The position numbers and the translations under genes are program-made. A stretch of 57,475 bases of DNA, counting the filler, from Dugesia japonica (taxonomy: Eukaryota), in the NCBI GenBank assembly GCA_001938525.1. It is 6 parts of 6 records of this genome, joined end to end, with 100 filler letters (N's around TTAATTAATTAA, not from the genome) between each part and the next. Parts side by side here need not be neighbours in the genome. Positions count along the whole stretch, not along the records: positions 21,718 to 31,418 come from MQRL01553871.1; 5 more parts are not named here. One strand, written 5' to 3'. Positions 8,667-36,995 of the stretch are shown here, piece by piece. The notes beneath the pieces are model-generated. The model searched no databases and was not told where the DNA came from. It was given only the letters and a program-made list of their open reading frames with translations. Positions within the stretch are counted from its first letter, which is position 1; the number at the start of each line of letters is the position of its first letter.

Positions 8667-8831
8667 TGTTTTATCATGCTCCAAAGATTTGACTTTCTCA
8701 ATTGCTCTTTTCAATTCAAAATCTGCTTTCAAAAATTCCTTTTCTTTTTGAGAACAAAGACCTTGAATATCTCTGATTTCGTTATTATACATTTCAATTT
8801 GACTTTTAAGAGATGCTGATTTCTTACTTTC
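8667..8831 (-). CDS. hook: Hook-family microtubule/dynein adaptor, internal coiled-coil exon
   Basis: Flanked by ttcag| and |gtaatc; 165 nt, phase 0/0. Encodes ESKKSASLKSQIEMYNNEIRDIQGLCSQKEKEFLKADFELKRAIEKVKSLEHDKT, resembling the Hook segment ELKKA..RSQLETYK..V.EL...ADKLEFE.KR..EK...L..EK. Confidence 0.8.
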
Positions 8832-9619: not shown

Positions 9620-9881
9620 AATGGAAGTTTTGCAAAAATATACAAAAAATAGCACCACTTTTAAAATTTGATTAAAAAAAAGCAACACTTGTAATTTATT
9701 TTTAAAAAAAACACCACTTAAAATTTATTCCACAAATAGCACCGTTTTTTCAAAAACTTTTGAATTCACAAAAATAATTTAAAAAAATTCACCGAAAATA
9801 ACACCATTTTTTAATTTATTTTCTAAAATTTGTTCCCCCGGGGTGTGTGTGTGTGGTGATATGCGCTACTATCTACCTACT
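9620..9881 (-). mobile_element. Polinton/Maverick-like terminus with subterminal repeats
   Basis: Reverse complement begins AGTAGGTAGATAGTAGCGCA. About five copies of an AAA(T)A(G/A)CACC(A)CTT motif lie at 9645-9812. Confidence 0.5.
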
Positions 9882-10099
9882 TAAATTCGTTCACAAAGGT
9901 GTTAATCATTCGATAAACTTTGTCGAGCCTCTGATTGGAAACTATACTCCACATGTCGAGTTATATTGGAACAAGAATAAGGTCCAAATAAAGAAAAGAC
10001 GTGGATTTAAATGGGAAATGTTGATAATTTGTGTAAGCATATTGCATTACAATACTCGCCATAAATAATGAAATTTTTATAATTAATTTATTTATGCCA

Positions 10100-11400
10100 T
10101 CATATTATTTACAATATATGCCAGATTCTACCATTTATCCAAAAAATGCAAATAAATTTGATGTTAATATAGGCATGTAAATTATAAACAATTAAATTGA
10201 AGTTATGAATATTGAAGATGAATTTATGTATGAAATTTTGCATTTAAATAAAAGTAAATTTCAGCATTAAGAAATTTCAAGAAATATATGAAGAATTAAT
10301 TAAGTTTAGTTTTATGACACATAAAAATAAGATATAAAATTATGTTGTGAAAAGAGAAAGTTGCGGAAAAACGAAATTTATAACTGAAATTAACCAACAG
10401 AATAAATACCATTACATACAAAAAAGTATGAAGTAGAACAAGTAATAAGAAATATAAACTCTAGAAACAGTTTATGGAAAACCAAATTTATTAAAACTAA
10501 AAGGTTATTGACACGAGAAAAAGGAATAATTCGAAAATTCATATACTAAGAAATTATAGGTAAAAAATATAAGTGAGAAAAATAAAATAACAGTTGTAAT
10601 GGCGATATAAAGTGTAAGAAATTTGTACATTAATTTAACCCATATTAAACTACCATCCGTTTAAAATGACGTCTAAAATTCGCGCCATATTAATTTGTGA
10701 AAACAATTTAAAAGAGAAGGCATAATATAACGTTCTCTGCGACGATGAGTAATCATTTTCACGAAACTGTAAACAATTTTTGTCATTGTTCTAAATTTTA
10801 TCGGTGTTTTTTTCAAAGAAAGTTTTAGGTTTAAATGAGTTAATATAGAGATTAGAGAAATTTGGGAAAAACATAGAATAATGAGAAGAACTGCCAGGTT
10901 AATGATGAAATTTGGGGAAATATAAAGAATGCTATAATAAAATTACAGTGAAACCACCTAAATTTTAACTTCTTGGATAAGAAGGATTAAAATTTACAAA
11001 GTAATGCTTGTTAAAAGAGTAATTAGTTAAAAGTCTAACATGAAAATTTAAATATTCTTAGAAACTTCAAACGAAATAATTTCACAAATTTTTAAAATCG
11101 TATTTATCAATTAAGACATCATCATTACTGCGCAGATTTAATAAATATAGAACTTAATAAACATTTGATTTTTTTATGAATACAAGAAGGTAGAACCTAN
11201 NNNNNNNNNNNNNNNNNNNNNNNTAAATTCAAGCTATAATATGCATTGCTGACAAACTAAATGAAAGAAAATTAAGACTGTCAACATTATAGAATTGACT
11301 TGTGTTAATCTCAATACTTCTAGTGTTTTAGTTAATGGAGTAGAAAATATAATTAGTCAAATATGTCCCACATTCTTTCAATGGTTAACAACTATTTTAC
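10100..11400 (+). mobile_element. Highly degraded Penelope-like RT remnant
   Basis: Fragments KPPKF*LLG (cf. PPKFYGLPK), KRVIS (cf. RPIVS) and NIIELTCVNLNTSSVLVNG (cf. DIIELL..CL....F.FNG), followed by a pLTR-like TCAATGGTTAA and a hammerhead motif. Confidence 0.4.
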
Positions 11401-11524
11401 AATTATTATTCGAATAACTGTTGAAATTAACCATTTATAGCATTTTTAAGATTTCAATAAATTCAAAGAATCGTAATTTTTGTTAGACACCCAAAATTTT
11501 TATTAGTTTTTTGATTATAAAAGT

Positions 11525-12511: not shown

Positions 12512-15500
12512 TTGCAATATCGAAAAGGGAATAATTCAATCGAAGAATTTATTCAACAAGTTAAAAAACGCGGAGAAAGTAATGCGACACAAATTGACAT
12601 TTACAAAACTAACCGCATTTTTATTGAAGTATTGCTTGGATGATAAATCAATGAAAGAAGAAGTGGCTAGATTTGAGTATACAGAATCTCTTCTCAAATT
12701 AAAATCAGGTAAAGAAAAAAATGAAGAAGATGAAGATCAATGAGGGCCGACTCCAGTGAAATATATAAAAGAAATTCTGAAATCAGTAGACGAAAAAAAT
12801 AGAAATGCAGATATTTCGGTTCTCAATAAACCAAGTTATGCCCAAGTTACAAGACAAAAGTACAATGCGTATCCATATCATCAAAGGAATGTTTGAAGTG
12901 AGATGATTGGAAGAAAGAATTACGGTCAAAAATCAAGAAATCAATATGAAACCAACAATGAATAACAATTGCAAAGAAGAACAACTCATACGAAATCAAT
13001 GAATTCTGATAATTATCAAAAAAAACATTCAATGTTATGGATGCNAAAAATTCGGTCATATCAGAAAAAATTGTCCGAATTTGCGTTGTTCAACGTGTCA
13101 AAGGAGAGAACATTTAAGCAGAAATTGGTTTCAATCAAGAAACAATCACATAGAGAAGAATATTACCAATAGAAACAATTATGATAATTATAGAACTCAA
13201 AATTTTGAAGAAAGGAAATTTCCCAATCAGTATGATCGAGTTGCTGCACTGGATGATGTCTGTTCTAAAAATGGAAATGCTCAGATGATTACGGAAAACT
13301 ACGAAGCTTCGACCAAAGGGGAAATGATCGGAGCTATTCAGATGAAGTAAGTGTTGTCTTTGATTCGAGATTTATTAAATATGAATATGATGCTGTGAAT
13401 GTATGTGACTGTATGTCTGCTTATAATGTATGTTTGAATGAATGTTCTGAAAATTATATAGATATTATTGATAATTCAAATAATTGACTTGATAATTCAA
13501 ATAATTGTTTTGATAATTTTGATAATTTTTTAATAATGAATTTGATGAATGTTTTTTTTTTTTACAGATTTAAATTTTGAAAATAATGAAAATACTTCTT
13601 TAACTGTTAATATAAATAATGTAATTATAGGAAATAAGTTAGATTAAAGGCCGTTTGATTGTGTATATTTGATTGTGCATAGAGTTTTATAATCAATAGA
13701 AAAGTCTTTAAAAATATCTTGCGCAAATGGAAGTCCATTGAAAATATTTGGACACTGTTTTATAAATTTAAGATATAAGTATAAAAGTATTAAAAATAGC
13801 TTTTTCTTGGCATTGGATATAATCCCTGAAATTATAATAGGAATATATATTTAAGAAAAATTAAATATAGGCTTAGTGAATATGAATGCGTTAATTTCTC
13901 GTAAAGACATGAAACATATAGATTTATGTAATTTAGAAGGTAAATTTACGAAAGAAATAACATATTTTGATAAACATGAAGCTTTAAAATTAAAAAAACA
14001 TTATAGGAAAAACTCATCCATTATATAAAACAATAATGAAATTTAGCAATATTTTTATGGCAAANNNNNNNNNNNNNNNNNNNNNNNNNNNNNNNNNNNN
14101 NNNNNNNNNNNNNNNNNNNNNNNNNAATAGTTGTACCACATAGACGACAACCAATACATTATGATGAGAAAATTAAAGAAATTATTTAGAATTTGAAGGA
14201 TAATAAAATAATATCGAAATGCGAATCCCCATGTAATTCCACAATTGTATGTGTTTAAAAGAAGAATTCAACTGATATTAAAATGTGCTTGGATTTTCGG
14301 TTGTTAAATAAANNNNNNNNNNNNNCTGCATTCCCTATTCCGAATGTGACCGAAATGCTAGATTCACTACATGGAGCTAAGTACTTTTCATCAATAGATC
14401 TTGGAAATGCATATTACTAAGTTGAATTGTAGGATGAATCAAAAATTAAAACAGCATTCTCAACAAAATATGGACAATATTATTTTAATAGAATGCCGTT
14501 TGAAATTGTGGCAGCGCCATCCACATTTCAAAAATTAATGACGATTAATATAGGAGACATGAATTGGAAAGAAACTTTGGTATATCTTGATGATATTTTA
14601 ATTTTTTCGAAAACAATTGATGNCCATATTTCAATTTTGGACAAGCTTTTTACAAGGATATCTAAATCTGGTTTACAAATTAATCCTGATAAATGCAAAT
14701 TTCTGGTATCAGAAATATAATTTTTAGGTCACGTAATTAATACTGGTGGAATATTGACAGTTTAAAAAACATATCAGAAGCTTTTTGGGTCTAACTACTT
14801 ACTAAAGGAAATTCATTGAAGGATATTCTCAACTAGCAAAACGACTAAAATCTTTATTAAGTATGAAAGAAAAGAAAATCATTTGGACATCTGAATGTGA
14901 AGTAGCATTTGGGAAACTGAAAGAGAAAATGTCAAATGCTCCTATATTATGTCACCCTGATTTTATTCGTGAATTTATTCTAGAAATGGACGCTAGGTTT
15001 GACAGTATTGGTGACGTATTGTCCCAAAAATATAATTTCGGAAGAGAAAAATTCATTGCTTACTGTTCAAAAAGTATATCACTATGATAAAAGTATATAC
15101 TGCATTACGAGAAAAGAATTACTTTAAGTATTTCACTTTACTCAACACTTTAAGCATTATTTATATGGAAAACAATTTGTATTGCGAACAGACAATAAAA
15201 CGATAACTTTCATGTTAACAACAAGAAAAACAATTACCGCTCAATTTCAAAATTCGATAAATTTTTTCAGTAGTTTAAATATCAAGTTCGAGTACAAAAA
15301 AGGAGAGAAACATTCAAACGTAGATGCTTTATCAAGATTGAATAACCATTTTTGTAAACAATGTAATATGGAACACGCTGATGCTAAAACTAAAAAATCC
15401 CAAACTCGTTTATTAGTTGTAAATGAAGATATCATTAAATATGAAATGCAGAGAAATAATGAGGAAACTAATGCAATAATAAAAAGATTGATAGTGAAGA

Positions 15501-16369
15501 GACAATAAAATTTGAATATCAAGACGAAATTGTTTTTAAAAATAGTAAAATATAAGTTCCTAAAGATAAACGAAATGACACCATTTCGGAAACGCACAAG
15601 AAATTATACCATGCTGGATTTCAGAAGGTGTACGATTTTTGAAACAAAGATATTATATGGAAAACTTTGAAGAATATGTAAAGAAAAATATACAGAATTG
15701 CAGAATATGTCATGAAAGAAATATGTATACAATGAAAACGAAAGAGGAATGTCTAAAATAGATTTTTGTGGACCATTTAAATTGACAAACACAAGAAAAA
15801 GTATATATTTAAAATTATTGGTCTGTATAGCAAATATATTTTATTAAAAGCAGTAAAAAATCAAGATGATAAACTTTAATCAAGATTTTAAGTGAATGTT
15901 GGTTATTGAAGTTTGTTTCACCGAGATCGATTCATGTTGATCATGGAAGATGTTTTTTATCTTCGAATTTCAAAGATTTGGCAGCGAAATTTAATTTTAA
16001 AATAAAATATTCTAGTTCATACCACCATCAAGCAAATGGTCACATTGAACAGCAATTTCGAACGATTAGAGACTGTGTCGAAGATAAATTATTCAGAAAT
16101 TGGGAAGAATGTTTACCTCAAATAGAATTGATTATGAATTTGACAATTCATAAAAGTACTAAATAAGTCCTGCAGAAATAATTTTTGGGAAAAATCTAAA
16201 TATAGATAAATTTGAAAGCTCAAATAAATTTCTAACCAATGAGGATATATCGAATCAAATGCATAATAAAACAGAAAGGAGTTTTTAAATTGGTGACAAA
16301 GTTTCGAGTAAAATTAATGTTAGAAATAAGCAAGAAAAACGATTCGATGGTCCTTACACTATAATTGAT
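12512..16369 (+). mobile_element. Degraded Ty3/gypsy LTR retrotransposon internal region (gag, PR region, RT, RNase H, integrase)
   Basis: Zinc knuckles CYGC.KFGHIRKNC and CSTCQRREHLSRNW; CANGSPLKIFG; RT CLDFRLLN, YFSSIDLGNAY, MPFEI..AP.TFQ, VYLDDILIFS; RNase H FILEMDA, RTDNK, HSNVDALSR; integrase DFCGP, HVDHGRCF, YHHQANGHIE; terminal RFDGPY. Many stops and frameshifts. Confidence 0.93.
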
Positions 16370-16571
16370 NNNNNNNNNNNNNNNNNNNNNNNNNNNNNNN
16401 NNNNNNNNNNNNNNNNNNNNNNNNNNNNNNNNNNNNNNNNNNNNNNNNNNNNNNNNNNNNNNNNNNNNNNNNNNNNNNNNNNNNNNNNNNNNNNNNNNNN
16501 NNNNNNNNNNNNNNNNNNNNNNNNNNNNNNNNNNNNNNNNNNNNNNNNNNNNNNNNNNNNNNNNNNNNNNT

Positions 16572-19869: not shown

Positions 19870-20315
19870 TCCTTAATATAACATCAGTTTATTTGAGTGT
19901 CCTCTCTATGATAAAAAAAATTCAAATCGTTAACTGGACAAAACTGTCATACAAGAAATAAAAATGTCAAACAAATAGTCCACTAATAATTAATTAAAAA
20001 AATTATCCAAAATCACATATAGTATGATAAATATCCGATAAAAAAGCATTATAAATGAAAGAATAATGAAAATGAAACCGGACATAATGTATTATGTACA
20101 AATGTAAGTACTTTTTGAACAAAACCATAAACAGATCATTTTGTCAATTTAATATCATTTGGAGTACAAGAAATTCTAACAAATAAGAGATTGCCTTAAT
20201 TATGATGCACCAGAAATTTTTTTCCATGAAGATGAATACTTACAATTTGATAAATTTTATTTTAAAAACAAAGTACCACTAATATCAATTGCAGACATTG
20301 ATGAATGTAAATAGA
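19870..20315 (+). pseudogene. Degraded protein-primed DNA polymerase B (Polinton-type), region leading into Exo I
   Basis: 20192-20310 encodes CLNYDAPEIFFHEDEYLQFDKFYFKNKVPLISIADID, cf. Polinton pPolB C..H....I..P....LKF.N......VPFVIYADFE; upstream HNVLCTN fragment. Confidence 0.55.
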
Positions 20316-20859
20316 AGAGAGGAGTTCTGGAGAATAAAAACATCTTCCTATCTCCCAGAGAGAAAATGAGTTAGTGTGCACCAATCAGAATGCAGGAAAA
20401 TNNNNNNNNNNNNNNNNNNNNNNNNNNNNNNNNNNNNNNNNNNNNNNNNNNNNNNNNNNNNNNNNNNNNNNNNNNNNNNNNNNNNNNNNNNNNNNNNNNN
20501 NNNNNNNNNNNNNNNNNNNNNNNNNNNNNNNNNNNNNNNNNNNNNNNNNNNNNNNNNNNNNNNNNNNNNNNNNNNNNNNNNNNNNNNNNNNNNNNNNNNN
20601 NNNNNNNNNNNNNNNNNNNNNNNNNNNNNNNNTTTTTTTTAAAGAAACAGTGTTTAAAAATAAAATATTGTTAAGCATATGTTAAATTTGTCTTAATCTT
20701 CTCGTTTCCGTATTGTGTAGTGACTACTCATTAGATTCGTTAAAAAATTAATTTTATTCGACTTGTTAATTTTTTTTGATTATTGTAAAGAATTTATCAG
20801 ATTTTAACTTTTTATATAACTAATTAAAGCAATGTCTATAAATATTCTTATTTTTTTAC

Positions 20860-21460
20860 GGATTTTAAATCACTTGTTTCTGAATATGCAGTGACTGCAC
20901 AACACAGAAACACGAGTAATTTGTTTTTCACGATAAGACGAAGGTTAATGACACACTATTTTTTAAATTAACTATTTTAGAAATCGACTATAGTAAGAAA
21001 TTTAAAATCCATGAACAAAATTCAAAATATGGTGTATATGTGCAATATGCTTTGAAAAAATCAATGAAATCCAGCGTGTCAGCATTTGTCAGTAATTTTT
21101 TCTTACTTTGTTACTAATGATTACTAGTGCTTTTACGATAACCCCAAAACGAGAAAGAAATGACTTAGTTCTAACGAAAAGGCAACTTCTTGAGTGAAAG
21201 TTAATACTCATCCGCGTAAAGTGATGTTCACTTGGTTAAACAAAAAAGGTAAAATCTACTTTAAATTACTTAAAGAAGTATAACTGTCAACTCTAACATG
21301 TACTATCAACAACTTCGTCATCTTAAAGCTGCAATTAAAGAAAAAGACCATTAATCGTTAATCGTTTAGCAACACGATACACTATGGACCGTAAGGGTAC
21401 TTATACTCACAAAACATCTGCAAGAATTTGATCNAAAGTCCTGGTTCTCAATTTTCAGGA
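20860..21460 (+). mobile_element. Degraded mariner (DD34D) transposase
   Basis: STIVRNLKSMNKIQ/YGVYVQYAL/QRVSIC..VLYDNPKTRKK..HPRKVM..KGKIYFKLL..TVNSNMYYQQLRHLKAAIKEK(RP), matching mariner WVPHEL, YDNPKRK, KVMLC and YCQQL.RL..AI..KRP. Confidence 0.85.
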
Positions 21461-22329
21461 TAGACCTGATGATTTTAAATTCATAAAGTGCATGCCTACT
21501 TTGTGTTATCGGTGTTCTAGGCATCTCGCTTATCAATGGTAGACGGAGTGAATAACTACATCCGATTCCGGGACAAACTAATTGCAATCCTGAAATCCGA
21601 GGATCAAAATTTTGGCCNNNNNNNNNNNNNNNNNNNNNNNNNNNNNNNNNNNNNNNNNNNNTTAATTAATTAANNNNNNNNNNNNNNNNNNNNNNNNNNN
21701 NNNNNNNNNNNNNNNNNATAGATTTTAACTTAAATGTTTAGAAAAATGAAATATTCGACCAAATGTTATGATGAAGATTGAAAATAATTGTATGATGGAA
21801 AATCAAATCCGGTTAGTTTTACTTACTTTTAATTGATTTTGGCATTGTGTTAATTATGATTTTAATTTGAATTAATGGTCAAATAATATGAATGAAGCAT
21901 GTATTTTAATTTAAATGAATAGTTAATTATATTATAACTTTTAATAAATCTTGTTTAAATTCATTGTTTGCAATAAATGTAAACTTTTCAANNNNNNNNN
22001 NNNNNNNNNNNNNNNNNNNNNNNNNNNNNNNNNNNNNNNNNNNNNNNNNNNNNNNNNNNNNNNNNNNNNNNNNNNNNNNNNNNNNNNNNNNNNNNNNNNN
22101 NNNNNNNNNNNNNNNNNNNNNNNNNNNNNNNNNNNNNNNNNNNNNNNNNNNNNNNNNNNNNNNNNNNNNNNNNNNNNNNNNNNNNNNNNNNNNNNNNNNN
22201 NNNNNNNNNNNNNNNNNNNNNNNNNNNNNNNNAAATGTAATGAAATCAGGTGGGATTTGATGATTTTATTAAATTTTCACCGTTTATTTTAATTATTATT
22301 AAAAATGTATACTTTTCACATAACTTAAC

Positions 22330-23300
22330 TTGATGATTATATTCAGAATTAGTAAAAATTCTCTATTGAATAGATCCTCTGATGTTCGATTTCGAGATAC
22401 TTTTATTATTTTTTTTCAAAATTTGATGGATTATCATTAGAGACTATAATTAGCTATGATAGAAACCCATAATAAGTACTTGTTTTTAATTTATTTCATC
22501 AATAATAAATAATGATATTTGAAATTAAATTACTTTATTATCCAGTGGTAATAGCAGTTATTTTACAGTTCATCAATGGTAGTTTGATTCCTATGATTGT
22601 CAACTTATTTTACACTATGTTTTTCCTTTATAATTTTATAATTTAATTTAATTTATAATTTTATAATTTTATAGTTTTATAATTTTGTATGCATAAGGTT
22701 TGACGATTTGTAACCAGGTTTTTCCTACTCAACTTTAAATTCTCTATCTAATTAATACATAGATGTTTAAATTCGAGTTACCCTTTACAAATTTCATAAT
22801 TCCCTCCCGGACTCACAAAAATGAAGTACATGTTTTTCTATTTAACTTTTATCTATAAGGTTTGGTGATTATAGGTTTACATATTTGGAATCAGTGAAAG
22901 ATTCCCTATCGAATAGATACCTCTTTGACCAATTTTAAGATACTTTTTGAATTTTCGAAAAAAGTTACCAAATCCGGGAGAACAACTGAATATCTTGGTT
23001 AGGAAGCATTTTTGCTGAGACGATATTTTAACTTTGCATAGTCACTTTTTTCTCCTGAGTAAAATAATACCACATTTGAAACCATACAAGTTATGTACGC
23101 AAAGAAAATTGAGCACCAAAATTCCAAATTTGAGATTTTTCCCCACAAAACCCTATTTATTTCATCGAGTATTAACTTTGGCGATTTTAGGTTTATATAT
23201 TTAGAATCAGCAAAGAATTTTCTAACTAATAAACATGGTTACTTTATGTAAAGATGAGAAATAATTTTTTCGAAAAAGTTTTATTTGTGAAAAATAATCT
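22330..23300. repeat. Probable non-autonomous DNA-transposon body with three diverged internal repeats
   Basis: A TATT(T/C)(A/G)GAAT(C/T)AG...CTA..(G)AATA motif recurs at about 22338, 22880 and 23197; termini not identified. Confidence 0.35.
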
Positions 23301-23519
23301 CCATTGAATTCTCCATCGATTGATGTAAAAATCTCGATAAAAAAAATTTTCAAAATTTCGAAAGTTCTCCCGGATTCCCCCAATAATTTGATTTAAAATT
23401 TTAAAAATCTGAAAATTTACTAAAAAANNNNNNNNNNNNNNNNNNNNNNNNNNNNNNNNNNNNNNNNNNNNNNNNNNNNNNNNNNNNNNNAAAAAAATTC
23501 GACATTTTCCATGAATTTC

Positions 23520-24062
23520 TATAAAACTTCAACCCAAATTGACCGATATCGAGAAAATAATTGACCAAAACGCCCAACAATTACCTAAACTAACCCAAAC
23601 CAAGGAAAAATTAGACCAATTTCACTTAAAACTGTCAAAAATTTACCACATTTGACCTAAGCACCCAAACTAAGCAATCACGAGGAAATATTCGACCGAA
23701 TTCACCTGGACCAACCAAAAATTGACTATATTCGACCTAACCGAGAAAATTCCAAACCAAATTCACCTAAACCAGCCAAAAATTGTCCAGATTCGATCTC
23801 ACCGAAAAAATCCGAACTATATACATATGAAAAATTCTACTGCTTAAAACAACTATAAAAATTTTCCCAACTAAATACAGTAAAAATAAAAAATACTGGA
23901 TCACTTATGCAATAATCTCGTGACGAAATTAATTACATTATGTAACGCACAAAAATGTGTGCCGCCGCCTATTTACATTATAAAAATACTGGATCACTTA
24001 TGTAATAATCCGATTACGTCAACGGGCTGGGGCGTGATCCAGTCCGCTACTATCTAACTACT
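23520..24062 (-). mobile_element. Polinton/Maverick-like terminus with about 60-bp subterminal tandem repeats
   Basis: Reverse complement starts AGTAGTTAGATAGTAGCGGACTGGATCA. TTCACCT...CCAAAAATTG..TTCGA units at 23621, 23701 and 23762; direct repeat AAAAATACTGGATCACTTATGYAATAATC at about 23889 and 23982. Confidence 0.5.
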
Positions 24063-24186
24063 TACACTACTTGTTATCATGTAAATAAAGATTTTATATT
24101 TTGTTTTATTGGTTAATAATATTATTAATGAAGTCAAATAATGATGTGTGGGGTTCACATTTCATTAATTGAATGTTTGATAACAA

Positions 24187-24485
24187 TTTCCGTAAGTGAC
24201 GCTCATGGTTCATTATTTATTACACACATCAATAGTCTGACATTTGATTAATAGAATTCATTATTTATATCTTGTAAAGTCAATTAAATTATGTAAGAAA
24301 AATTAATTTTTGTGTAATAATAAAATGATGCTCACGCTTCATTAATCTTATGTTTTATAAAAGTTTCCGGAAGTGACTCTCGTGCTTCATATATTAATTA
24401 TATCAATAATTACTTTTCGGAAGTGGCGTTCGCGCTTCATTAATTTAATGATATCAACCGTTAGTGACGCTCACGTTTCATTAAT
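24187..24485 (+). promoter_or_regulatory. Array of five diverged TTTCCGGAAGTGACGCTCACGCTTCATTAAT motifs (possible LTR enhancer)
   Basis: Copies at about 24187, 24324, 24364, 24414 and 24458 with variable spacers; the consensus contains ETS-like CCGGAAGT overlapping a CRE half-site TGACG. Confidence 0.55.
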
Positions 24486-24589
24486 TCATTGTCAATTAAT
24501 ATTCGCAGTTAATTAAAAATTAATTATGTGTGAAGTGACTTGTCAATTATCTGGTCCAGTGTCCCGGCCTCTACCTGCTTGCGTAAAGA

Positions 24590-25050
24590 AAAAGTGTACA
24601 TGTTGGCACAGGTGAAACACCTTTTTACTTAATGTACGTAAAGAGGAATAATATGCCAATAGATTTAGAATTTCAACCACCGACAGCTTAATACATGGAT
24701 GTGTCTGACTATAAAACAGTGATGGCAGAGCGTATGCAAACAGCCTGGAAACAGGCTGGTCTGAATATCAAGCATCAACAAGAAAACTATAAAAGCCAAT
24801 ATGATAAAAATACTAAACATCATAGAATTAAAATTGAAGATCTAGTTTACTTAAATAAACCAGAACCAAAGGACATGTCGCTAAAATTATAGAGACCATT
24901 TAAAGGACCGTATGAAGTATGCGAAGTAACTGATACAAATCTACAGTTGAAACCAATTAAAAATAAATAGGCTGAACCAATTATTGTGCATGAAAATAGA
25001 TGTAAAAGGGTAACGGAAGTGGATACCCAGAGATATCCATTGAGATTAAA
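24590..25050 (+). mobile_element. Ty3/gypsy integrase C-terminus (GPY/F module)
   Basis: VHVGTGETPFYLMY..MPIDL..AWKQA..NI..QQ..YKSQYDK..KIEDLVYL..KL*RPFKGPYEV..VHENRCK..RYPLR. Confidence 0.88.
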
Positions 25051-25922
25051 ACAAAAAACTAAAACGGACGGAACAATTGATTTTACAATTAATAAAAATT
25101 TGAAATCGAAAAATGCATTATTATCCACGTTATTCATAATGGGATGCATAGCTGATGTATTCGGTCAGAGACAATGCTACTAAATTAAAAATTATGAACA
25201 GGATGACAATTATTGCAAGGTATATTATGGTATTTCAATAGTAATTCTGATGAAATGTGCATTATTCGTGATTTAAATATATCATCAAGTAAAGTGTACG
25301 AGTTTAATTATGGAATTAACAAAATAATCATTCGAAATTTAAAAAAAGTGAATATTTGTTTAGAATTCATTACTTTGTCAGTGAATATGATAGTAAAAAT
25401 GCAACCAGTAAAATAAAAATGAAAGTTTGAGAGTCACGAATATGGGCAGAGAAAATTAAAAACACGATTGAAATTGAACCGCTTCAGAACGAAATTCACA
25501 TTCATTGGAAACCAATGAATTATTTAAAGGTTACTATTGAATTTTTCAAATTAAATGCCGTGATTTTGGGTACTCTGAATAACAACAACAATATGAAAAT
25601 TTTTTCATAGATTCCTAAAGGACAATATCAATTCCATATTTTTCATGCACCAATAATATTGAGACAAGAGCAAGCGGAAATAATAATCGAAAAACATACC
25701 TCATGGATTATAAATGAAAATATATTCTCAAGCCCAAATATGGTCTAAAGGGAAACAAACACTATTATTAGTGAAACACAGAACTCCGTTGTAAATAGGG
25801 GAAAGGCTGGAGGATGATGAATCACTCTTGGAATCGACTGATGTCGTATATACTCCGACATTAGGGGATTTCAAGAAAAAGTGGTCATTTATTCGAGCAC
25901 CTTTGAGCAAAGCAGGGCAGAT

Positions 25923-26393
25923 ATGGATTGCGAGTGCACAACAACATCCGAAGATAAACCCGCTCCTTAATCTGTAACCATTATGGATTACAATGGTGTT
26001 GTATTAATGAACAAGAAAATAACAAAAGAGGAAGAATTTTAGATTATGGTACTAAATTTCATAGAATTAAAGAGACATTTTCCAGAAATAAAGAATAAAG
26101 TAATCAGGCGAGTTCAGTGTATGGTGAAAGAAAAAAATCCTGGTGGTACATGATCTCACTTGGAATTAATCAGTTTGAAAATTCCAAAATATCAGTTGAT
26201 GGGAATTATGGATTTAGTCAATGGACAATTCTTTCTATCAGGAAATATCGCAAAGAAAAATGGTGGACGGTGGTATAGTCTACAATTATTGACAAAAAAA
26301 ATATGCGGAATAACTATTCAAACGGGAAAACATTTTACATTCGAAGATACAAAGACTGTCATGGAAATCTATTAAAGAGTGGAAGATGATTGG
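25923..26393 (+). pseudogene. REX4/ISG20/AEN-like DEDDh 3'-5' exonuclease, frameshifted, downstream of gypsy integrase
   Basis: MDCECTT..SVTIMDYNGVVLMNKKI../DYGTKFH..KILVVHDL/LELISL..YSLQLLTKKICGITIQTGKHFTFEDTKTVMEIY*RVEDDW aligns with REX4 ALDCEMV..VSIVN..G....DKYVKP..TDYRT..SGI..RILVGHAL.NDL..SLK.L....LG..IQ..EH.S..DA.A.M.LY....EW. Confidence 0.78.
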
Positions 26394-27469
26394 ATTGATG
26401 ATGTGGATATTTTAACTATGCCAAGTAAAATTATTCGAAACAAATTAACTTTAAAACAGTATAAAAAGAAAAAAGAAAAAATAGAAGATAAGAAGCAACA
26501 GAAACAAGAAAAGGAAGCTAATTCAAGAAATAATTCCGGTGGGTCTGGATAAGTGGAATAATAGTCCAAAATGCGAAATTGTTGAAGAAATTATGATAGA
26601 CGTGGGGGATATTCATGATGTAATAACTGAAGACAGCAATAGTAATATTAAATCAAAAGAAGTTTGGACGCATACTGATGATCTGATAAATACTAAAAAC
26701 ATAGAAATAAGTACAGAAGAATTAATTACTAATATGAATAATATGCAAATAAAAGAAACATGTGTTGAAGTTCGTCGAGGAACAGTTAATTCAACAAAGA
26801 AAGAAGAAGGTAGGGACTAGAGGCTTGGATACAGACTTTGATAACTTTATCAGTGACAAGATATGTATTCAAGGAAAAGAATTCATTCGATCAAAGGCAA
26901 GTGTTTAATATGAAAGTGAAGATTGAATGAAGAAAACAGTCAATTTCAGTTTTTTGGGACACCAATAATTAAATAAATTTTCAAAAAAAAATGTTTTGTG
27001 CAGTTAATATTATATTTATTACATCAGGATTATAAACTCGAGTAAATAAAATTGATAAGCACATAAATATGATAAGATAAAAGAAATGGTCTCATTAACT
27101 TAATTAATTAATAATATTAATTTTCCTAATTAATATTATTATTTTTCTTATTATTATTATAATTCATTATTAGTAATTAGTTGTCATTATTATTACTAAC
27201 TTTTATTATTATTATTATTGTCCATATTATTATTATATTTTTAATTCTTATTGTTATTACATTATTATTCATTGTTATTAGTATTATTAATTCCTAGTAT
27301 TATTATTTATAATAGTATTGATGTTGTAATATTGTTTGTTGTACTGATCATATACACATAGATAAACAAGGTTCGCAGTTTCAATTAGGTAATGTCAAAA
27401 CTAAAATGGGTGGATATGTGGTGAAATGGATAAATAGAAATTTAAATAAAATAAATTAAGTAATATTGT

Positions 27470-27630
27470 AATATTATAATTACAATTATTGTGAGAATAA
27501 TTGTTGGACTTAACCATTNNNNNNNNNNNNNNNNNNNNNNNNNNNNNNNNNNNNNNNNNNNNNNNNNNNNNNNNNNNNNNNNNNNNNNNAAAGTTCAAAT
27601 TTTCGACAATAGTCTTCTTCAGGAACTTCA
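27470..27630 (-). mobile_element. Penelope pLTR with intact minimal hammerhead motif (27591-27628)
   Basis: Minus strand AAGTTC-CTGAAGA-AGAC-TATT-GTC-GAAA-AT-TT-GAACTT with a perfect 6-bp stem I; after a gap, the family tail AATGGTTAAGTCCAACAATTATTCTCACAATAATTG. Confidence 0.75.
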
Positions 27631-29090
27631 ATATTGTAATAAGTCAGAATAAATATATGAAATAAAAATTAAAATTATATGCAAAATAATAACAGAATTT
27701 GTTAATTAAATTTTAAAGTGAAAGAATAATAAATGATAAATTACAACGTTTGTAAATACTGTAATTATGTAATTGGCATTTAAATCGATTAATAAATGAA
27801 AAATGGTGGAAAGCGGAATGAATGTCTTAACGGTGAAAGCATAAGGATGTACAGAAATAAATGAACATTAAAGTGATGAGGTGTGAAGTAGAGTTTAATA
27901 TTAATAAAACATAAAAAGATTATAAAAATTAAAATAGAAATATTACCTTGAAAAACGGCAAATGAGATAAATGATGAGTGTTATGAGGTAAACTAGAATC
28001 GATGATGAAATAAAGTTAAATTAAGGCAATGTTGAAACCTCGTCAGTTTACATGAGATCAAAGACGAGTTGTCTCGGGATGAAATAAAAATAGAGAGTAT
28101 ATTTGAGCAAGGTCATGAGAGTGAAATCGAACAAAGAGTGAAAAAAAAGAAAATTAAGTTGAAATGAAATGGTAGAGGGAAGTCGAGTGAAACCGGTGGG
28201 TATTGAATGAAAGATAAATAACAACAAAGTTTATGCTTTCAGGTGATGATCGAGGTGCTGTTTCTTATTTTATGTTTTGCATGATCTGTAGGCAATTGTA
28301 TTTTCTTATTTAAATTTCATGTCAGAATGAATTAAAAGATGTTTTATTCCAATATTTTAATTTTAGATCATTTTAATGATAGTTAATTCTTTTTGATAAT
28401 TATAATAAAATTTTCTATAATCGCTTATTAAATAACCATGCATAATTTCGTTAATAATTTTTGATTTATCTAGAATTCATTTATTAAATTTCATTTTGTT
28501 TGGTTAAATAATCATAAAGTATTAATTATTTGATGAGATATATTAGTTCATGAGTAAACATAAATATTTTAGTTGAAAAGATGTTCCTCTTAATGTCTTA
28601 GCTGCTATGATCAAGCATATATTTAATTAAACATGATTGCTTAATGGGTTTGGTGCACGAGTAAACGTAATGAACGATATAACATTTAAATAGTAATTTC
28701 CTATCGAAAAGGAATTTTAGGATTAGAATATTTATTTCATAACACAAGTTATTTATTTACTAAAATGTGGACGTGATTTAAAATTGTAATTATTTTGTTG
28801 ATATAGTTATATTTCTCGAATGCTAAATTAATGATAATAATTTTAAAGATATGCACGTGACTTAAAATCTTTAAACTATTATAAGGTAGCGAGTCGGGCA
28901 GTAACAGGTCCTGGGGGCAATAAAGAATGAAGCTCTAGTCGAGAACTTTCACCTCACTACTCGCATATAAATTGCAGATTAAAGAAAAAATGATAATAAT
29001 CGAACTGAAAGTAATATTTTAAATGTAAATGGTTTGATGAATCTATAAAATTGTTCAGAAATATCAAGAAAGATAAATAACTAGGAAGCA

Positions 29091-29533
29091 ATGCAATTAT
29101 TGAACGGATGGTCCTTCACTGCTGGAAAGTGTAATCAGATGCCAATATTGTACGATTCATGTAATGACTATGGTACTGACAAGGACCCATGGTGGATGAA
29201 CGCCAACAAATTACGAGTGAAAGAACTAGAGAACCAGGACCTTAAACAGGAGGTAACAGATTTAAAATTACAGTTGGTAAAGGAAGAGGAGGAGGAGACC
29301 AGGCGAGAACAAGATACGTGGAGGCAGAACCAAGCATTAGCCGACCTCCTGTTCAACACCTCAGGAATACACCTCAGCCTACTCCTCGTGGAACTGTGAT
29401 CAAAAGAGAAATACCGCAACACCAGAAAGTCACCCAGGGTTTATACAGCCCCATCGAGCAAGTCATGCCAACACTCGTGGCTCATCTGGACAATTTAGAG
29501 GAATTCGAGATCGTAGAAGAGATACTTGAATGA
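29091..29533 (+). pseudogene. Orphan frameshifted ORF: coiled coil, Pro-rich linker, acidic tail
   Basis: GC-richer than its flanks; ORFs 29091-29399 and 29318-29533 join by one frameshift (NKLRVKELENQDLKQEVTDLKLQL...PPVQHLRNTPQPTPR...LDNLEEFEIVEEILE). Confidence 0.35.
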
Positions 29534-29758
29534 ATGGGATGTGAATAATTGTGAATATAATTTATTTAGTAGTTGTTGATTAACCTCATAATCTAATATA
29601 TAGATCAGCGAAAGTAAATAAGGAATTATTTTATGTACAAATATAATAGTATTCCTTTTACGTGAATCGAGATTTGTTTTGATAAATTAACAGAAATAAA
29701 CAGCTTGGATACTGACATCCACATTATACTCTTTAATAATAACGATAATTCCAAACTA

Positions 29759-30061
29759 ATGTCATTAACATTTAGCATGACTTCAACAATTTGTAAACCG
29801 GATCGTTCTGAACTGCTACAGAAACAACAAACGAATAGAACGGCAATCAAAAGATTAGGGAAAGATGTGAAAAAGACAAAAGACGTTGTCAGTACGATGA
29901 AGAGAAAGATGTCCGTTTTGCGAGATCGATTGAGTGTGAGTCGTCGGAGAGAATTCACACTCATCGCAAACAACCGAATGTTCGTGGAGAATATAAAATC
30001 GTATTCGGATCAAGAGGCCCCCATCCTCACCAATGTGAAAAAATTACCAACAAATAAATAA
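29759..30061 (+). CDS. Orphan basic coiled-coil ORF, 3' end abutting a Penelope pLTR
   Basis: Open frame with higher GC than flanks; ELLQKQQTNRTAIKRLGKDVKKTKDVVSTMKRKMSVLRDRL. Confidence 0.3.
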   Translation: MSLTFSMTSTICKPDRSELLQKQQTNRTAIKRLGKDVKKTKDVVSTMKRKMSVLRDRLSVSRRREFTLIANNRMFVENIKSYSDQEAPILTNVKKLPTNK

Positions 30062-30067
30062 AAAAAA

Positions 30068-30163
30068 CAAAGCATTTTGATCGAAGCTTTTTTAATTTAA
30101 TGAAACCTGAAATGCGATCAATGGTTAAGTCCAACAATTATTCTCACAATAATTTTAATTGTA
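30068..30163 (+). mobile_element. Penelope pLTR 3' fragment
   Basis: TTTGATCGAAGCTTTT...GCGATCAATGGTTAAGTCCAACAATTATTCTCACAATAATT. Confidence 0.7.
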
Positions 30164-30164
30164 A

Positions 30165-30770
30165 ATACTGTAATAATTTTAAAATTTGTGCCAAACATAA
30201 AAAGATTGTCGCACAGCTTCGAATAAAGAAAAAACAACTGAAAAATGAAGCAAAGAAATCCAGTTTAATTACGAAAAATTACTTCAAGTAAATTAAAGTG
30301 GATGAAGATGAGAAAGAAAAAATGGAAGAAATCATCTCAATAAAAAAGAAATTTGTATAAAAAAAATGAAGTTATGAAAATTAATAGATGTGGATGAAAA
30401 CGAATTTTATCATGAAGTGATTGAACGCAAAATGCTTTTTAATGTTCGTAAAGAACTAATGCCAAAATCACCACTTCCACTATTCGCTTACATTTGTAAC
30501 ATCATATGGAGATGAAGTTTTTTCTAATTTAAGAATTTCACAGCAAATTATCAGTATTAAGTCAATTAAAATTGATTTTATCATATTTAAGAGTATTTGA
30601 TGAGTGAAATTCGATTAAATCATTTGGTTTTGTTGAGTACTGAGGAAAATTATGTTGATTAAACAAATTTTAATGAAATAATAAATAAGTTTCAAAGTGT
30701 AAAAGCACAAAAAAATACGTTTATAATAAATTAAGTCATTAAAATTGTTGGGGCTCCACCTGAGTTGGAA
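30165..30770 (+). mobile_element. Degraded hAT (Tip100-like) transposase C-terminal dimerisation region
   Basis: FSNLRISQQI..MSEIRLNHLVLLSTEENYVD*TNFNEIINKFQSVKAQK, cf. PNL.IALQI..MSQERLN.LA.LSIE......DFDEII.KFA..KARK. Confidence 0.7.
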
Positions 30771-31040
30771 AAAATAACTGGGGAAAAACAGTCCTCAGGG
30801 GAACCCTTTCAAGAATTTAACCCTACCGTCCCTATGGTAGGTTTTCAGNNNNNNNNNNNNNNNNNNNNNNNNNNNNNNNNNNNNNNNNNNNNNNNNNNTA
30901 AACCTTTCGTTCGGGTTCTATATTTTTCCCTGGTATTATTTAGGCGATTTAAACCATTTCTATTAATTAAAATAAAAATTTATTATTACTAAGAGAATTA
31001 AACCATGTCTATTAATCAAACATTTATTATTAATCAATAT

Positions 31041-31418
31041 CTAGATCAAATCTAAGGCTTCAGGATCTAGCCATTGATCTGGGGATGTGATGACAAAGTT
31101 GAAAGTTGCAATGTCGTCATCATCATCCCACTGCGTGGTGTTTGGATTTCCTAATTGTCGAGACAGATCGGCTATATATTGTTTAAGAAAGTCGATCTTG
31201 CGTTGTAACCGAAGCTTATTTTCTGTTTCCAACGCCTTGGTCTGGGTCGCTAAATCGGATTGTTTTTTGACGACGAGATCTAGTCTTTTAATTAGTTTAT
31301 CCCGTTGGTCCAAGTGTCTCAACAACGCTTTTTCTGTCTTGCGTTTCAAATGTCGCTCTACAAGGAGGCGGCGCAAAAGTCGGTGGCAGCGTTTTAAGCT
31401 ATTCGGAAACTGGATCCT
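31041..31418 (-). CDS. Orphan basic coiled-coil protein with acidic/aromatic tail, 5'-truncated by scaffold end
   Basis: Frame is open from the scaffold edge (RIQFPNSLKRCHRLLRRLLVERHLKRK...) to TAG at 31041, with AATAAA just downstream and GC content well above background. Confidence 0.5.
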   Translation of the reverse strand, partial: RIQFPNSLKRCHRLLRRLLVERHLKRKTEKALLRHLDQRDKLIKRLDLVVKKQSDLATQTKALETENKLRLQRKIDFLKQYIADLSRQLGNPNTTQWDDDDDIATFNFVITSPDQWLDPEALDLI

Positions 31419-31518
31419 NNNNNNNNNNNNNNNNNNNNNNNNNNNNNNNNNNNNNNNNNNNNTTAATTAATTAANNNNNNNNNNNNNNNNNNNNNNNNNN
31501 NNNNNNNNNNNNNNNNNN

Positions 31519-31635
31519 TTTCATGTATTCGTAACGACCAATCAAAATTCTTTCATACTGGCACTTCAATTACTAGCACAATCGACGGGGGGCGGGTGGG
31601 GGGTCATCGCGCCAGTGCTGACGTATCCCACTACT
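31519..31635 (-). mobile_element. Variant Polinton-like terminus
   Basis: Reverse complement AGTAGTGGGATACGTCAGCACTGG followed by GC boxes and AGTATG...GATTGGTCG, the same CCAAT unit seen at 37050-37230. Confidence 0.4.
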
Positions 31636-32177
31636 CTTGAATACCAGGAGAATCGATGGCTAAAAAGATGGAAAACGTTTTGAAAGAAGAGGTTGTTTGA
31701 GTATTACGAATAAACGCTATAATGTTTCTAAATAAATATTCTAGGCACTTTGTTATTGTTCAAGTATGATAAATGACAAAGATATTGTAACTTTTATTAG
31801 TATATATCATGAATTTAATATCATTAAATAGCACTGAGATTATATTTGAAATTTAAAAAATTATATTAATTTCAAGATATAAATATTTTCATAATGTAAT
31901 AAAAAAATTTATGTTTAGATTCTGATTATTTTGTTCAACCTGAAAATTCTAAAGAAACAAAATGCGATCTGAAAAACGAAGATTTAACTTTTTTTTTTAT
32001 AAAAAAAACTCACTGCCTATACATTTGTTTGAGAATTCATCCCAAATGTACGGAAATAATTTACGATGAACGCAGAGAAATTTGCTACGTTTGTAGGAAA
32101 TATTCGATAAATGAACATGCTTTAAATGGACTTACTGTTTATGTTGATAAGAGTAAGCATTACTATTCATTTGCTAT

Positions 32178-33149: not shown

Positions 33150-35420
33150 TTATCCTATTATATTTATTCTATTTATAGAAATTGACAACAATACAGAGGA
33201 ACTCAAAAAGAAACGTTTAGAAACTTAAAAATATAACAAGAATATTAAATCTAAAAGTACTGAGAACAAAATTATTAAAGAAATAAAGAATCTAAAATAA
33301 ATTATTACTCCAACAGACAGAACAAATAAATTGGTAGCCTTAACTGAATAGACATACAAGGATTTTTTCTCTGAAAATCTGAATAATTATGAGATTATCA
33401 CCAATCACTGAAGAGAATAAATGTAATAAAGAACTGATTAAAATGGTAGAAAAATATGAAGACCAAATAAAGTCTTTATTTTTAGCAGTATAGTGTCATG
33501 AAACAGTTCTATCATCTATGTAATGTGTTCCTAAAGATCATAAAACAACAATAAAAGAAAGACCTATTGTCAATGCTTCTGATACTTTATAAATTTCATT
33601 ATGTAAACTTATGGCAGATTATTTGAGACCACTATTAAGTTTTGTTCCAGCACATTTGAAAAATAGTTATGAGTTTGTTNNNNNNNNNNNNNNNNNNNNN
33701 NNNNNNGATGATAAATTTGGTTCATTGGATGAAACAAATCTGAAGAGCCTGAAAATTTCATCGATATTATAAGTGATTTCTTTGAAAATAACATACAGAT
33801 ATTTCATTAATCACCAAAAATGATTTCAAATCTCTTATCAATTTGTGTCTGTTCCCCGACAGCATTTTCATCGATGAAAATAATTTTAAACAAAAAGTGG
33901 ACTGGCAATGGGTAACAATTTGTCTCTTATTTTAGCGATAATTGTTATGAAGTTCATTGAAAATAAAATTATTGTCAAAGCAAAGAAGAAGATACATCTT
34001 TGGTTCAGATTTATAGACGATATTTTATTTGTTTCTAATTCTCCTTTAGAAAATATTTTAGAACTGCCAATAGTTTTAATGATAACATCAAATTCATCTC
34101 ATCTGGAGGTAAAACCGACTCAAAGTCTGCATATATAACAAAAGGTGGTGTTATAGTTTTCGAATAATCCNNNNNNNNNNNNNNNNNNNNNNNNNNNNNN
34201 NNNNNNNNNNNNNNNNNNNNGTTTGTTGAACGAATTAAAAATTATGACTGGAACGATGATAAATTTGGTTCATTGGATGAAACAAATCTGAAGAACCTGA
34301 AAATTTCATCGATATTATAAGTGATTTCTTTGAAAAGAACATACAGATATTTCATTAATCACCAAAAATGATTTCAAATCTCTTATCAATTTGTGTCTGT
34401 TCCCTGACAGCATTTTCATCGATGAAAATAATTTTAAACAAAAAGTGGACTGGCAATGGGTAACAATTTGTCTCTTATTTTAGCGATAATTGTTATGAAG
34501 TTCATTGAAAATAAAATTATTGTCAAAGCAAAGAAGAAGATACATATTTGGTTCAGATTTATAGACGATATTTTATTTGTTTCTAATTCTCCTTTAGAAA
34601 ATATTTTAGAACTAGCCAATAGTTTTAATGATAACATCAAATTCACTTTCAGATTCCTTTTCTAAACACCTTAATCTAAAGGAAACTTGGTGAAGTAATA
34701 ACTATCCAGTTTTAAATGAAACCATTTTACAGTGGACATATATTGCACTGGAGGAAAAATACTACCATCAGGCAGAAAATTTATATAATCAAGGGTGAAA
34801 GAATAAGAGCTGAAATACTATCATCAAATGAAGAAATGAGATTGACTTCCCGCAGGTTGAAAAAAATAAATTTCTAAATAATAAATATCCAAATCGAATT
34901 GTATCTAAGTATTTATCATCGAGTGCAAAATTTAATGAAATTAAACAAAAGACAAATAAAGTAATTAAATTACCTTTTATTAATGAAAAAATAAACAAAT
35001 CATGCAAAATATAATAAAAACTCGAAACTCAATCACAATCCAAGAATTATATTCAAAACGCAAGCACCTTTGGGCATCCAATTACAGAAACCAAGACAGA
35101 ATTTTTGTGGTCCCAAATGCATTTGTCATGGTAGAAATATCTACAATAGAAGAAATATCATTTACCAAATAACATGCACCTTATGTAAGGATACATATAT
35201 AAGAGAATCATGCAGAACCATCAGTACAAGAATTAAAGAACATCTCAACAAAAAGAAAGTGAAGTCTTCAAACACTTTCAAAACAATGTAAAGCATAATG
35301 TTTTACCAGAAAATCATCATATTACCTGGAAAACATTAGGTACAGGCTACAACATGATAATAATAATTAAAGAAGATAAACCTCAGATCAATGTAGTGTT
35401 CAACATGTACAATAATTAAA
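33150..35420 (+). mobile_element. Penelope-like retroelement (RT plus GIY-YIG endonuclease), degraded
   Basis: IITPTDRTNKLVAL; VPKDHK..ERPIVNA; FGSLDETNL; FKQKSGLAMGNNLS; WFRFIDDILFV; IPFLNTLI; KPFYSGHILHW; NNKYP; CGPKCIC..NIIYQITCTLCKDTYIRESCRTISTRIKEH. Confidence 0.92.
34098..34170 (-). pseudogene. Polinton-type protein-primed PolB Exo I fragment
   Basis: Minus strand encodes DYSKTITPPFVIYADFESVLPPDE, containing the PFVIYADFES signature; truncated by a gap. Confidence 0.7.
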
Positions 35421-35729: not shown

Positions 35730-36995
35730 GGAGTACTAGTATACTTGGATAATATTTTGATATATGGACAAAATATGATTAACGGGTTTGTAAACTGTTT
35801 TCTTTACTCAAACAAGCAGGCTTAAAAACAAATCCGATAAATGCGTATTCAATTCTGAGGTCATAGAATTAGTGCTAAAGGTATAAGACAAATGAAAATA
35901 CTATCAGGAAAATTTGAGAGGCAAAGACACCAAAATTTACCACATAAATGCGGCCATTTCTAGGTCTAACCAATTATTACAAGCGGTTTATAAAAGACTA
36001 CGCTCTCATTGCAGCACCATTATATGCAACAACTGCTGGCCCCAAAAAAACATTGAATGGACAAAGGAATGAGAAGATAAATTTCAAATGTTAAAGATTA
36101 AATTATGTAGTGCTTCTATCTTGACTTTCTGAAATGACAAAAGTTTATGGTTCTCACACATAAATTGTTCATGAAAAAGAATATTGCGTAGCTCGCAAGG
36201 AGTTGTTGGCATTGCACGATTTCATGGTGTATTTCAAACATTATTTATACGGAAAAAGATTAAGAGCAAGAACAGATCATAAAACTATGACATTTATGAC
36301 GAAGACGAGTAAACCTATTAAAACACAGTTCCAATCATTGATAACAAATTTAGCAGAATTTAATTTCAATTTAGAATTTAGAAAATGAGCAGTACATGCG
36401 AATGCTGATGGGTTTTCAAGAATAGGAGAAAGCTGGTGTTTATAATGTCAGACGTCACATCAAGATGCAAAGGGACAACAAGTTTGGGTTAAAAAAATTA
36501 ATGTATTAAATAAAAAAAAATTTGACAAATTTCTTTGTATATCAAAGAAATACAAAGAAATGATCTTGTTACAAGAGAAAGTATTGAATATATAGAAAAA
36601 GGAAACGTTAATAGTAAGCTGAGTGCTATAGCTGAATGCTATATATTTTTCAAAACTGGATAAATTTGAGATGAATGATGAACTGTTAATTATCAATGAA
36701 AATAAAAAAAGAAAATATTACTTGCAGGGCAATCGATACCCGAATTTATTGATTTCATTGACGAAGAAAAATGTCATGTGGGAAGTCAAAAACTGATAGA
36801 ATATTTGAATGTAAGTTATTTTTGGCCAAATATGAAACGAATTGTAGAACACCAATTAAAAAATGTATGATTTGCAATATGAGAAAGACATACACTGGTA
36901 GAACTAAAGAGTGTTTGGTCAAAAGAACAGAGTTTAGACCTTTAGAATAGGTTTTTATGGATATCGTTCATTTTCCTAAAGCGCAAACTTAGAAA
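35730..36995 (+). mobile_element. Degraded Ty3/gypsy pol fragment (RT end, RNase H, integrase zinc finger)
   Basis: LVYLDNILIY; FLGLTNYYKRFIKDYA.IAAPL; RKELLA..FKHYLYGK..RTDHK; HANADGFSR; CHVGSQK..YFWPNM. Same lineage as 12512-16369; cut off at the AGTAG terminus. Confidence 0.88.

Follow-up and report, generated by a model that had tools for sequence, protein, structure and literature searches.

A decayed Ty3/Gypsy remnant in Dugesia japonica followed by an ISG20/REX4-type exonuclease, probable cargo of a Burro-like lineage

A stretch of 57,475 nucleotides of Dugesia japonica DNA (assembly GCA_001938525.1; six joined parts with filler, positions 21,718 to 31,418 from MQRL01553871.1), referred to as the window, contains a Gypsy integrase tail followed by a decayed DEDDh exonuclease, and the locus raises the question whether the nuclease is cargo of a retrotransposon lineage or a host gene copy that landed there by chance. 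The remnant probably derives from a Burro-like Ty3/Gypsy element, has decayed and likely lost an internal segment; the lineage of this element would carry a metal-less barrel joined to an ISG20/REX4-type exonuclease as cargo, perhaps directed against RNA-based defence. The structural part of this reading is held with high confidence. The window is AT-rich (GC mostly 0.19–0.31), gapped and full of repeat debris, and the following features were assigned in it:

24548..25060, + strand: Ty3/Gypsy integrase C-terminal tail, 46–47% identical to residues 1065–1244 of the pol of element L001 (described below)
25060..25580, + strand: in-frame pol extension, from hydropathy and from diverged sister contigs that cover 24788–25579 in overlapping steps
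25581..25600, no strand: putative internal deletion joint, from a depth drop, sister-contig ends and the missing ORF start
25596..25905, + strand: latter half of the N-terminal beta-barrel encoded by an accessory ORF, with its conserved linker, from tblastn with P0004, P0009, P0033 and P0034 and an N-domain profile match (15.7 bits, E = 1.4e-6)
25917..26400, + strand: predicted DEDDh-type (DEEDh) 3'-5' exonuclease domain of ISG20/REX4 type, from motifs, five catalytic columns, family profile and tree
26400..26953, + strand: last part of the accessory ORF, a basic patch followed by a low-complexity acidic tail that reaches the natural C-terminal block, from tblastn to P0033 and P0034

The order proposed in the initial annotation, a Gypsy integrase tail and then a decayed DEDDh exonuclease on one strand, was recovered, with all pieces on the + strand. 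Its limits of 24590..26820 stop short of the end of the ORF remnant, which extends to about 26953 by tblastn; integrase homology starts at 24548. Near 24900 the integrase tail contains a GPY-type motif. Over 183 columns the tail shows 47% identity with the end of the integrase in the L001 pol (E = 4e-49), and it is interrupted by three stops (24689, 24890 and 24968) and no frameshift. In the pol extension, a signal-peptide-like hydrophobic stretch at 25115–25153 (hydropathy peak 2.25 at 25115) precedes some 0.4 kb of decayed coding sequence in which a surface-protein ectodomain likely begins; the extension gave no Pfam match of note and no sequence match to the L001 pol end. By three-frame translation, Exo I (MDCE) was located at 25923–25934, Exo II (HDL) at 26149–26157 with LE next in another frame, and Exo III (HFTFED) at 26331–26348, so that all five catalytic columns of the window are readable as D,E,E,H,D; the domain is interrupted by two stops and by four frame changes. 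The main frame scores 127 bits with the family profile; the raw frame gave a weak match in PDB (ISG20L2, E = 0.045), and none of three proteins from the decayed frames matched Pfam. Pieces of the tail match residues 360–451 (E = 0.007) and 506–551 (E = 0.001) of P0033, and also P0034, by tblastn.

Decay was counted with piece borders set by the analyst from tblastn and motifs, giving 3 stops in 196 codons for the integrase tail plus hydrophobic stretch versus 6 in 436 codons for the ORF, and 0 versus 8 frame changes, four of the latter inside the exonuclease. The even decay first described therefore holds for stops and fails for frameshifts. Likewise, the 0.9 kb of degraded middle is coding-like, as had been stated, but is not one unit, being composed of the pol extension (25060–25580) and the latter half of the N-terminal domain encoded by the ORF (25596–25905). 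No RT, RNase H, integrase core or LTR of the same copy adjoins the remnant, and no LTR pair was found around it or in L001, L002 and L004, all of which are truncated, with an assembly gap in the window from 27519. Rfam gave 0 matches in L001–L004 and in positions 20000–32000 of the window. The stretch is present in sequencing runs of one organism, six runs from three studies containing at least half of its words, and no RNA run was listed as containing it. RNA run X20 contributed 490 reads, mostly on an upstream repeat (336 of them less than 90% alike), with a depth of 0–8 over the ORF, and RNA run X23 had no reads on 24960–26120. The contigs of run X7 were guessed to be RNA and may be DNA. 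These expression results carry no weight in the argument. The window copy is dead.

The initial annotation had described a seamless run from integrase into exonuclease; this is most likely a deletion joint. Across 25581–25600, contig depth falls from 107–132 to 20–25. Sister contigs stop at 25579 or start at 25601 and continue with non-fitting sequence, amounting to about 800 bases in record 11 of run X2, and among the sister contigs listed none bridges 25581–25600. The N-domain profile match begins at 25596, a profile built from the initial 70 residues of the family matched no frame of the window, and the first 65–70 codons of the ORF are missing. Because of the depth drop, the unlike continuations of sister contigs and the absent first codons, 25581–25600 is likely an internal deletion peculiar to the window copy; it is less likely that related elements recombined at the joint or came to lie side by side by chance. 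Contigs of about single-copy depth cross 25599, which suggests real DNA, not an assembly join.

Related copies exist on both sides. Overlapping contigs, 84–90% alike, tile the integrase tail and extension as far as 25579, and further contigs lie over the ORF at 25601–26561, one of them spanning 25662–26235; sister divergence is alike left and right of the joint (84–90%). In run X2, 25662–25957 is covered by at least three diverged contigs (85–90% alike) besides a near-identical one. At the linker motif (25857–25934) depth is 257–975 versus 20–90 nearby, pointing to many more distant copies of the ORF, summed depth not being equal to copy number. Among the contigs listed none covers the whole stretch, and every part of the remnant has diverged contigs in DNA runs X1, X2, X4 and X5.

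A HMMER search with the main frame returned 28 matches among 1.84 billion proteins, the best (E = 1.6e-28) far beyond chance; 26 of these belong to an unnamed family and two are host-type (E = 1.9e-6 and 6.8e-5). Nineteen of the 28, together with P0033 and P0034, were traced, the family ones being unnamed proteins or fragments on JGI, ENA and Logan contigs. The longest HMMER match has at most 662 residues, and three closer members were added by a word search that covered proteins of up to 1159 residues. Long members have their own Met start, about 170 shared residues, an RNase_T domain and an acidic tail, and several family proteins sit on contigs of 14–25 kb. Against PDB, the family profile matched ISG20L2 (E = 5.8e-27), ISG20 (3.4e-19), SDN1 (9e-16) and PAN2 (1.2e-8), and profile and fold both place ISG20/ISG20L2 first, before SDN1, PAN2 and DnaQ; the ISG20/REX4 type assigned at the outset is thereby upheld. 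Pfam reported RNase_T in 18 of 22 members and DNA_pol_A_exo1 in one (E = 0.079).

Of the 27 family rows, 25 retain all five catalytic columns, which are incomplete in a truncated row and in the dead paralogue of L001; the Exo III His is likewise found in 25 of 27. At Exo II, Glu occupies 19 and Asp 7 of the 27 family rows, with Asp in 39 of 41 host rows; the Glu noted earlier in the window is thus a family trait, not decay. From these sequences the family is predicted to be an ISG20/REX4-type DEDDh exonuclease with 3'-5' activity. dN/dS between copies, named as a check in the initial annotation, came to about 0.1 for L003 versus L004 (barrel and linker 0.08, exonuclease 0.11; tails about 0.4), a pair with dS of 1.1–2.1, near saturation, from another subclade than that of the window and with one stop in L003. 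The family ORF thus appears to be conserved and under selection. In viral contigs, 24 pattern matches included no relative of the family, and a viral structure library yielded exonucleases, cupins and closterovirus ORF1a pieces separately, none of those listed covering both domains well.

The accessory protein was modelled on the relative P0004 with AlphaFold (22 rows; pLDDT 89, pTM 0.86), so that the fold given for 25596..25905 is a prediction on that relative. The model has two domains. Residues 174–324 superpose on ISG20 with Z 15.4 and rmsd 1.9 over 143 aligned residues, and residues 1–129 form a beta-barrel resembling ALKBH6, OsALKBH1 and E. coli AlkB (Z 8.9–9.3, rmsd 3.2–3.6, 124–127 aligned), with small cupins (Z 8.2–8.5, 86–95 aligned) tied with AlkB within 1 Z unit. 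Pfam AlkB or cupin was matched in none of 22 members, and an atlas search gave no usable match for the N-domain. The iron ligands of AlkB 2OG-Fe(II) enzymes form an H-x-D...H motif. With strands mapped to AlkB by eye, these ligands have no counterpart in the family, His occurring in at most 2 of 19 rows at any column of residues 55–66 or 105–116; the residues kept instead are Y11, P37, N38, K/R41, H76 and D/E123. The barrel may be a non-catalytic binding module. The barrel domain, like the pair of intact and dead paralogues described next, goes beyond the initial annotation.

A metagenome scan yielded seven loci, four of the family and three host-type. The most complete, L001, begins just before the protease and has a pol of 2368 codons with PR, RT, RNase H, integrase, a second protease and ankyrins by Pfam (Ank_2, E = 1.3e-10), ending by eye in a signal peptide, an ectodomain and a membrane helix. 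Behind pol lie a dead paralogue (7268–8740), an intact paralogue (9043–10371) and a weakly SUMO-like ORF (Rad60-SLD, E = 0.095), each as a separate ORF, with tandem repeats between ORFs; neither of the two Pfam domains given with E-values remains in the window. L002 and L001 agree at 99.9% over 6568 bases and are one element; L003 and L004 start just past the end of an upstream ORF and are too short to show linkage. The linkage of pol and exonuclease rests on one full element, L001, plus the window. As L001 bears family ORFs behind a pol with a 47%-identical integrase tail, the claim of a Gypsy-lineage cargo is supported; the expectation of integrase and exonuclease in one frame does not, since they are separate ORFs in L001. 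An in-frame pol–exonuclease fusion, considered from the frame at 25240–25420, was rejected. Queried with the L001 integrase, another Gypsy integrase in the window gave no match; the L001 ectodomain did not match the pol extension of the window; and among 145 candidates for longer proteins joining an integrase end to a hydrophobic stretch, none reached E <= 0.001. An acceptor-like AG stands right before the ATG of ORF3 and ORF4 in L001 (background, 6 of 283 ATGs), that is, at two of five ORF starts, and is lacking in L003, L004 and ORF2 of L001.

The origin of the nuclease was addressed with a tree of 68 exonuclease domains, comprising 27 family rows and 41 host rows (34 of 120 listed proteins, hand-picked for spread, plus L005); five fragmentary HMMER matches and one short domain were left out. 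Family and host rows are split at 100/100, and the window domain groups with P0004, P0005, P0033, P0034 and P0035 at 97/94. Forcing it together with six tapeworm host domains was rejected (p-AU 2e-16). Holding it on the host side, which amounts to placing it at the family's base, was not rejected (p-AU 0.169), in a tree that has a long family–host branch, is without planarian REXO4, PAN2 and REXO1, and does not name the donor. The exonuclease is found to be multi-copy and in a clade of its own (100/100), not single-copy, unlinked to the integrase and within a host REXO4 clade, the outcome against which the initial annotation had set its claim.

Two other accounts of the locus were weighed against a lineage cargo. 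That a processed pseudogene of host REXO4/ISG20L2 landed behind the integrase could draw on host ISG20L2 and ISG20 as the nearest solved relatives, on the one non-significant AU test and on a tree without the host's own REXO4. It was nevertheless rejected on the family/host split, the AU test with the tapeworm genes and the multi-copy state; moreover, the window nests within the family, and the barrel half, linker and C-terminal block are common to window and family and absent from host-type matches. This account is largely refuted and we consider it extremely improbable. Alternatively, the two halves may come from different elements that met by chance or recombination at 25581–25600, in which case the integrase lineage may lack the ORF. 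A joint bridged by none of the sister contigs listed, a depth of about 90–380 versus 20–90 across it (outside one conserved motif), and the placement of the L001 paralogues, which are not the nearest kin of the window domain in the tree, would fit such a meeting. However, L001 shows the same strand and order and an integrase tail with 47% identity, the other integrase in the window being unmatched, and the joint contains no foreign DNA and is flanked by sister copies of like divergence, which makes an origin from two elements decidedly improbable.

For the preferred reading, a deleted element of a cargo-bearing lineage, the following mode of action is proposed. The barrel–exonuclease gene would lie behind pol as a separate accessory ORF, and its protein would be made from a spliced or internal transcript and not within Pol, so that it would act in trans. 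By likeness to ISG20 the predicted substrate is single-stranded RNA, cut from the 3' end, with the barrel serving as a binding module without catalysis, and the protein may destroy unprotected 3' ends, either on RNAs of the silencing pathway or on by-products of the element itself. Mature piRNAs end in a 2'-O-methyl group that hinders such exonucleases, which counts against a counter-defence role. This role is nonetheless put forward, tentatively and at somewhat less than even probability, ahead of each of the other roles, because the Burro neighbours are host-manipulating, the elements are under PIWI control and the dead paralogue is kept at full length. Burro elements have cargo related to apoptosis and ubiquitin (PMC6431247) and are PIWI-silenced (PMC8532177), and ISG20 is a broad antiviral nuclease that degrades ssRNA and ssDNA (PMC9157404).

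The nuclease might instead perform a job intrinsic to replication, trimming the RNA, primer or cDNA intermediates of the element at their 3' ends. It speaks against this that the nuclease is encoded apart from the polyprotein, in an ORF of its own that has other accessory ORFs and a full-length dead paralogue as neighbours, and to our knowledge most Gypsy elements replicate without such an accessory exonuclease. Self-processing has been proposed for the bdelloid DEDDy ORF3 (PMC5408684) and the KolobokD DEDDh nuclease (PMC9587614), and both the action of ISG20 on ssRNA and ssDNA (PMC9157404) and the kept catalytic residues are compatible with it; we regard it as possible but unlikely. Exclusion of competing viruses or elements, or cutting of host mRNA, in the manner in which ISG20 restricts viruses, is suggested by the broad antiviral activity of ISG20 (PMC9157404) and by an antiviral role proposed for retrotransposon accessory domains (PMC6338049). 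As cutting alone makes the dead paralogue harder to explain, such an exclusion function appears distinctly unlikely. Similarly doubtful is a dedicated anti-silencing nuclease, in which the metal-less AlkB-shaped domain, having conserved pocket residues of its own, would read a modified nucleotide or RNA end and feed host RNAs, e.g. piRNA precursors, to the ISG20-like domain, with the dead paralogue as a decoy or regulator.

Among known systems, the bdelloid Juno/Vesta LTR retrotransposons and Terminons (Rodriguez et al. 2017, PMC5408684) likewise have a DEDD exonuclease ORF3 behind pol and share the DEDD-to-DEED change. Their ORF3 is RNase D-like and of DEDDy type, whereas the present family is DEDDh of ISG20/REX4 type with a His-type Exo III, and therefore an independent capture is proposed; the fused barrel domain and the tandem of intact and dead paralogues further distinguish the present family. 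Burro/GYPSM1 (PMC6431247), which exceeds 25 kb and has an env-like region between gag and protease, carries ankyrin repeats and a SUMO-like domain as cargo; L001 has ankyrins in pol, an ORF with a weak likeness to SUMO, and tandem repeats between ORFs. The portion of that paper covered describes no exonuclease or AlkB-like domain. The GAG-ENV-POL errantiviruses of Platyhelminthes (PMC13524379) are multi-copy flatworm Gypsy elements of about 15 kb, comparable with the 14–25 kb family contigs; exonuclease, DEDD and AlkB are absent from the text portion covered, and exonuclease and DEDD from seven supplement files. KolobokD (PMC9587614) also shows DEDDh cargo in a eukaryotic mobile element, but is a DNA transposon, and its nuclease resembles Exuperantia, TREX and ERI1, not ISG20/REX4. 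In orchid Gypsy elements (PMC9289625) an AlkB-fold domain is likewise cargo, there as a functional demethylase, whereas the present domain is without His ligands and fused to an exonuclease. With human ISG20/ISG20L2 and REX4 (PDB 1wlj, 7yw5; PMC9157404) the family shares the fold (Z 14–15.4) and the Exo I and Exo III motifs; it differs by its separate clade, the predominant Glu at Exo II, the extra N-terminal barrel and the mobile-element context. DEDDh cargo in Gypsy elements was not found in the literature covered, and the covered parts of PMC11410931 and PMC8532177 contain 0 occurrences of 'exonuclease'; Grohme et al. 2018, its supplements or Repbase may already annotate the ORF.

DEDDy cargo is known from the LTR retrotransposons of bdelloids, and the present family would add an independent capture of a DEDDh nuclease, for which the nearest relative of solved structure is ISG20, an antiviral protein of the host. 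For the pairing of an AlkB/cupin-shaped barrel with an exonuclease, no earlier description was found in the literature covered. As intact members exist, the question of how a retrotransposon may contend with PIWI silencing is open to test in a tractable animal.

The metagenome sequence L001, whose pol and separate exonuclease ORFs provide a counterpart for the decayed Gypsy integrase tail and broken DEDDh exonuclease ORF in the window, is a Burro-like element from position 3 to 11517. Its parts, other than the core pol domains, were as follows.

Domains and ORFs of L001
pol: ankyrin repeats
after the integrase: second aspartic protease domain
C-terminal end of pol: membrane protein
exonuclease ORFs: in tandem, one dead and one intact
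further ORF: SUMO-like, the likeness being weak

Tandem repeats with units of 89 and 62 bases were located upstream of the last two ORFs.

Other retroelement debris and two open frames of coiled-coil character were found in the window; the open frames gave no significant Pfam match in the portions scanned.

Further features of the window
14145-16370, +: decayed Gypsy RT-RNase H-integrase (30-38% identity to the L001 pol), separate from the main remnant, with an integrase end of its own
29085-30061, +: open frame, coiled-coil character
31041-31466, -: open frame, coiled-coil character
35885-36424, +, and 57003-57443, -: additional remnants of RT/RNase H and of integrase

An RT piece and a GIY-YIG piece at 33890-35291 likely represent a Penelope-like element. 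A 300-base duplicate (99%) at 33707 and 34255 brackets gaps and probably arose as an overlap in the assembly. An approximately 80-base repeat was dispersed in both orientations (7812, 27437, 30088, 35627, 44129 and 53772). The identical 12-base palindrome flanked by runs of 44 N at 12456, 21662, 31463, 40046 and 48626 was rejected as biology, being a scaffolding linker.

In sequencing run X10, labelled organism B, read-length pieces identical to the window within 25045-25195 and 25976-26120 were present at a depth of 2-3. As this run may be mixed or mislabelled, they were not counted as evidence of a second species.

Upstream of the integrase remnant, a repeat of very high depth at 23900-24026 was followed by a stretch that adjoins the remnant and in which one 12-base motif occurs four times (24193, 24370, 24420 and 24461). 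The region 23900-24545 may belong to another element or may form a terminal part of the element that left the integrase remnant.
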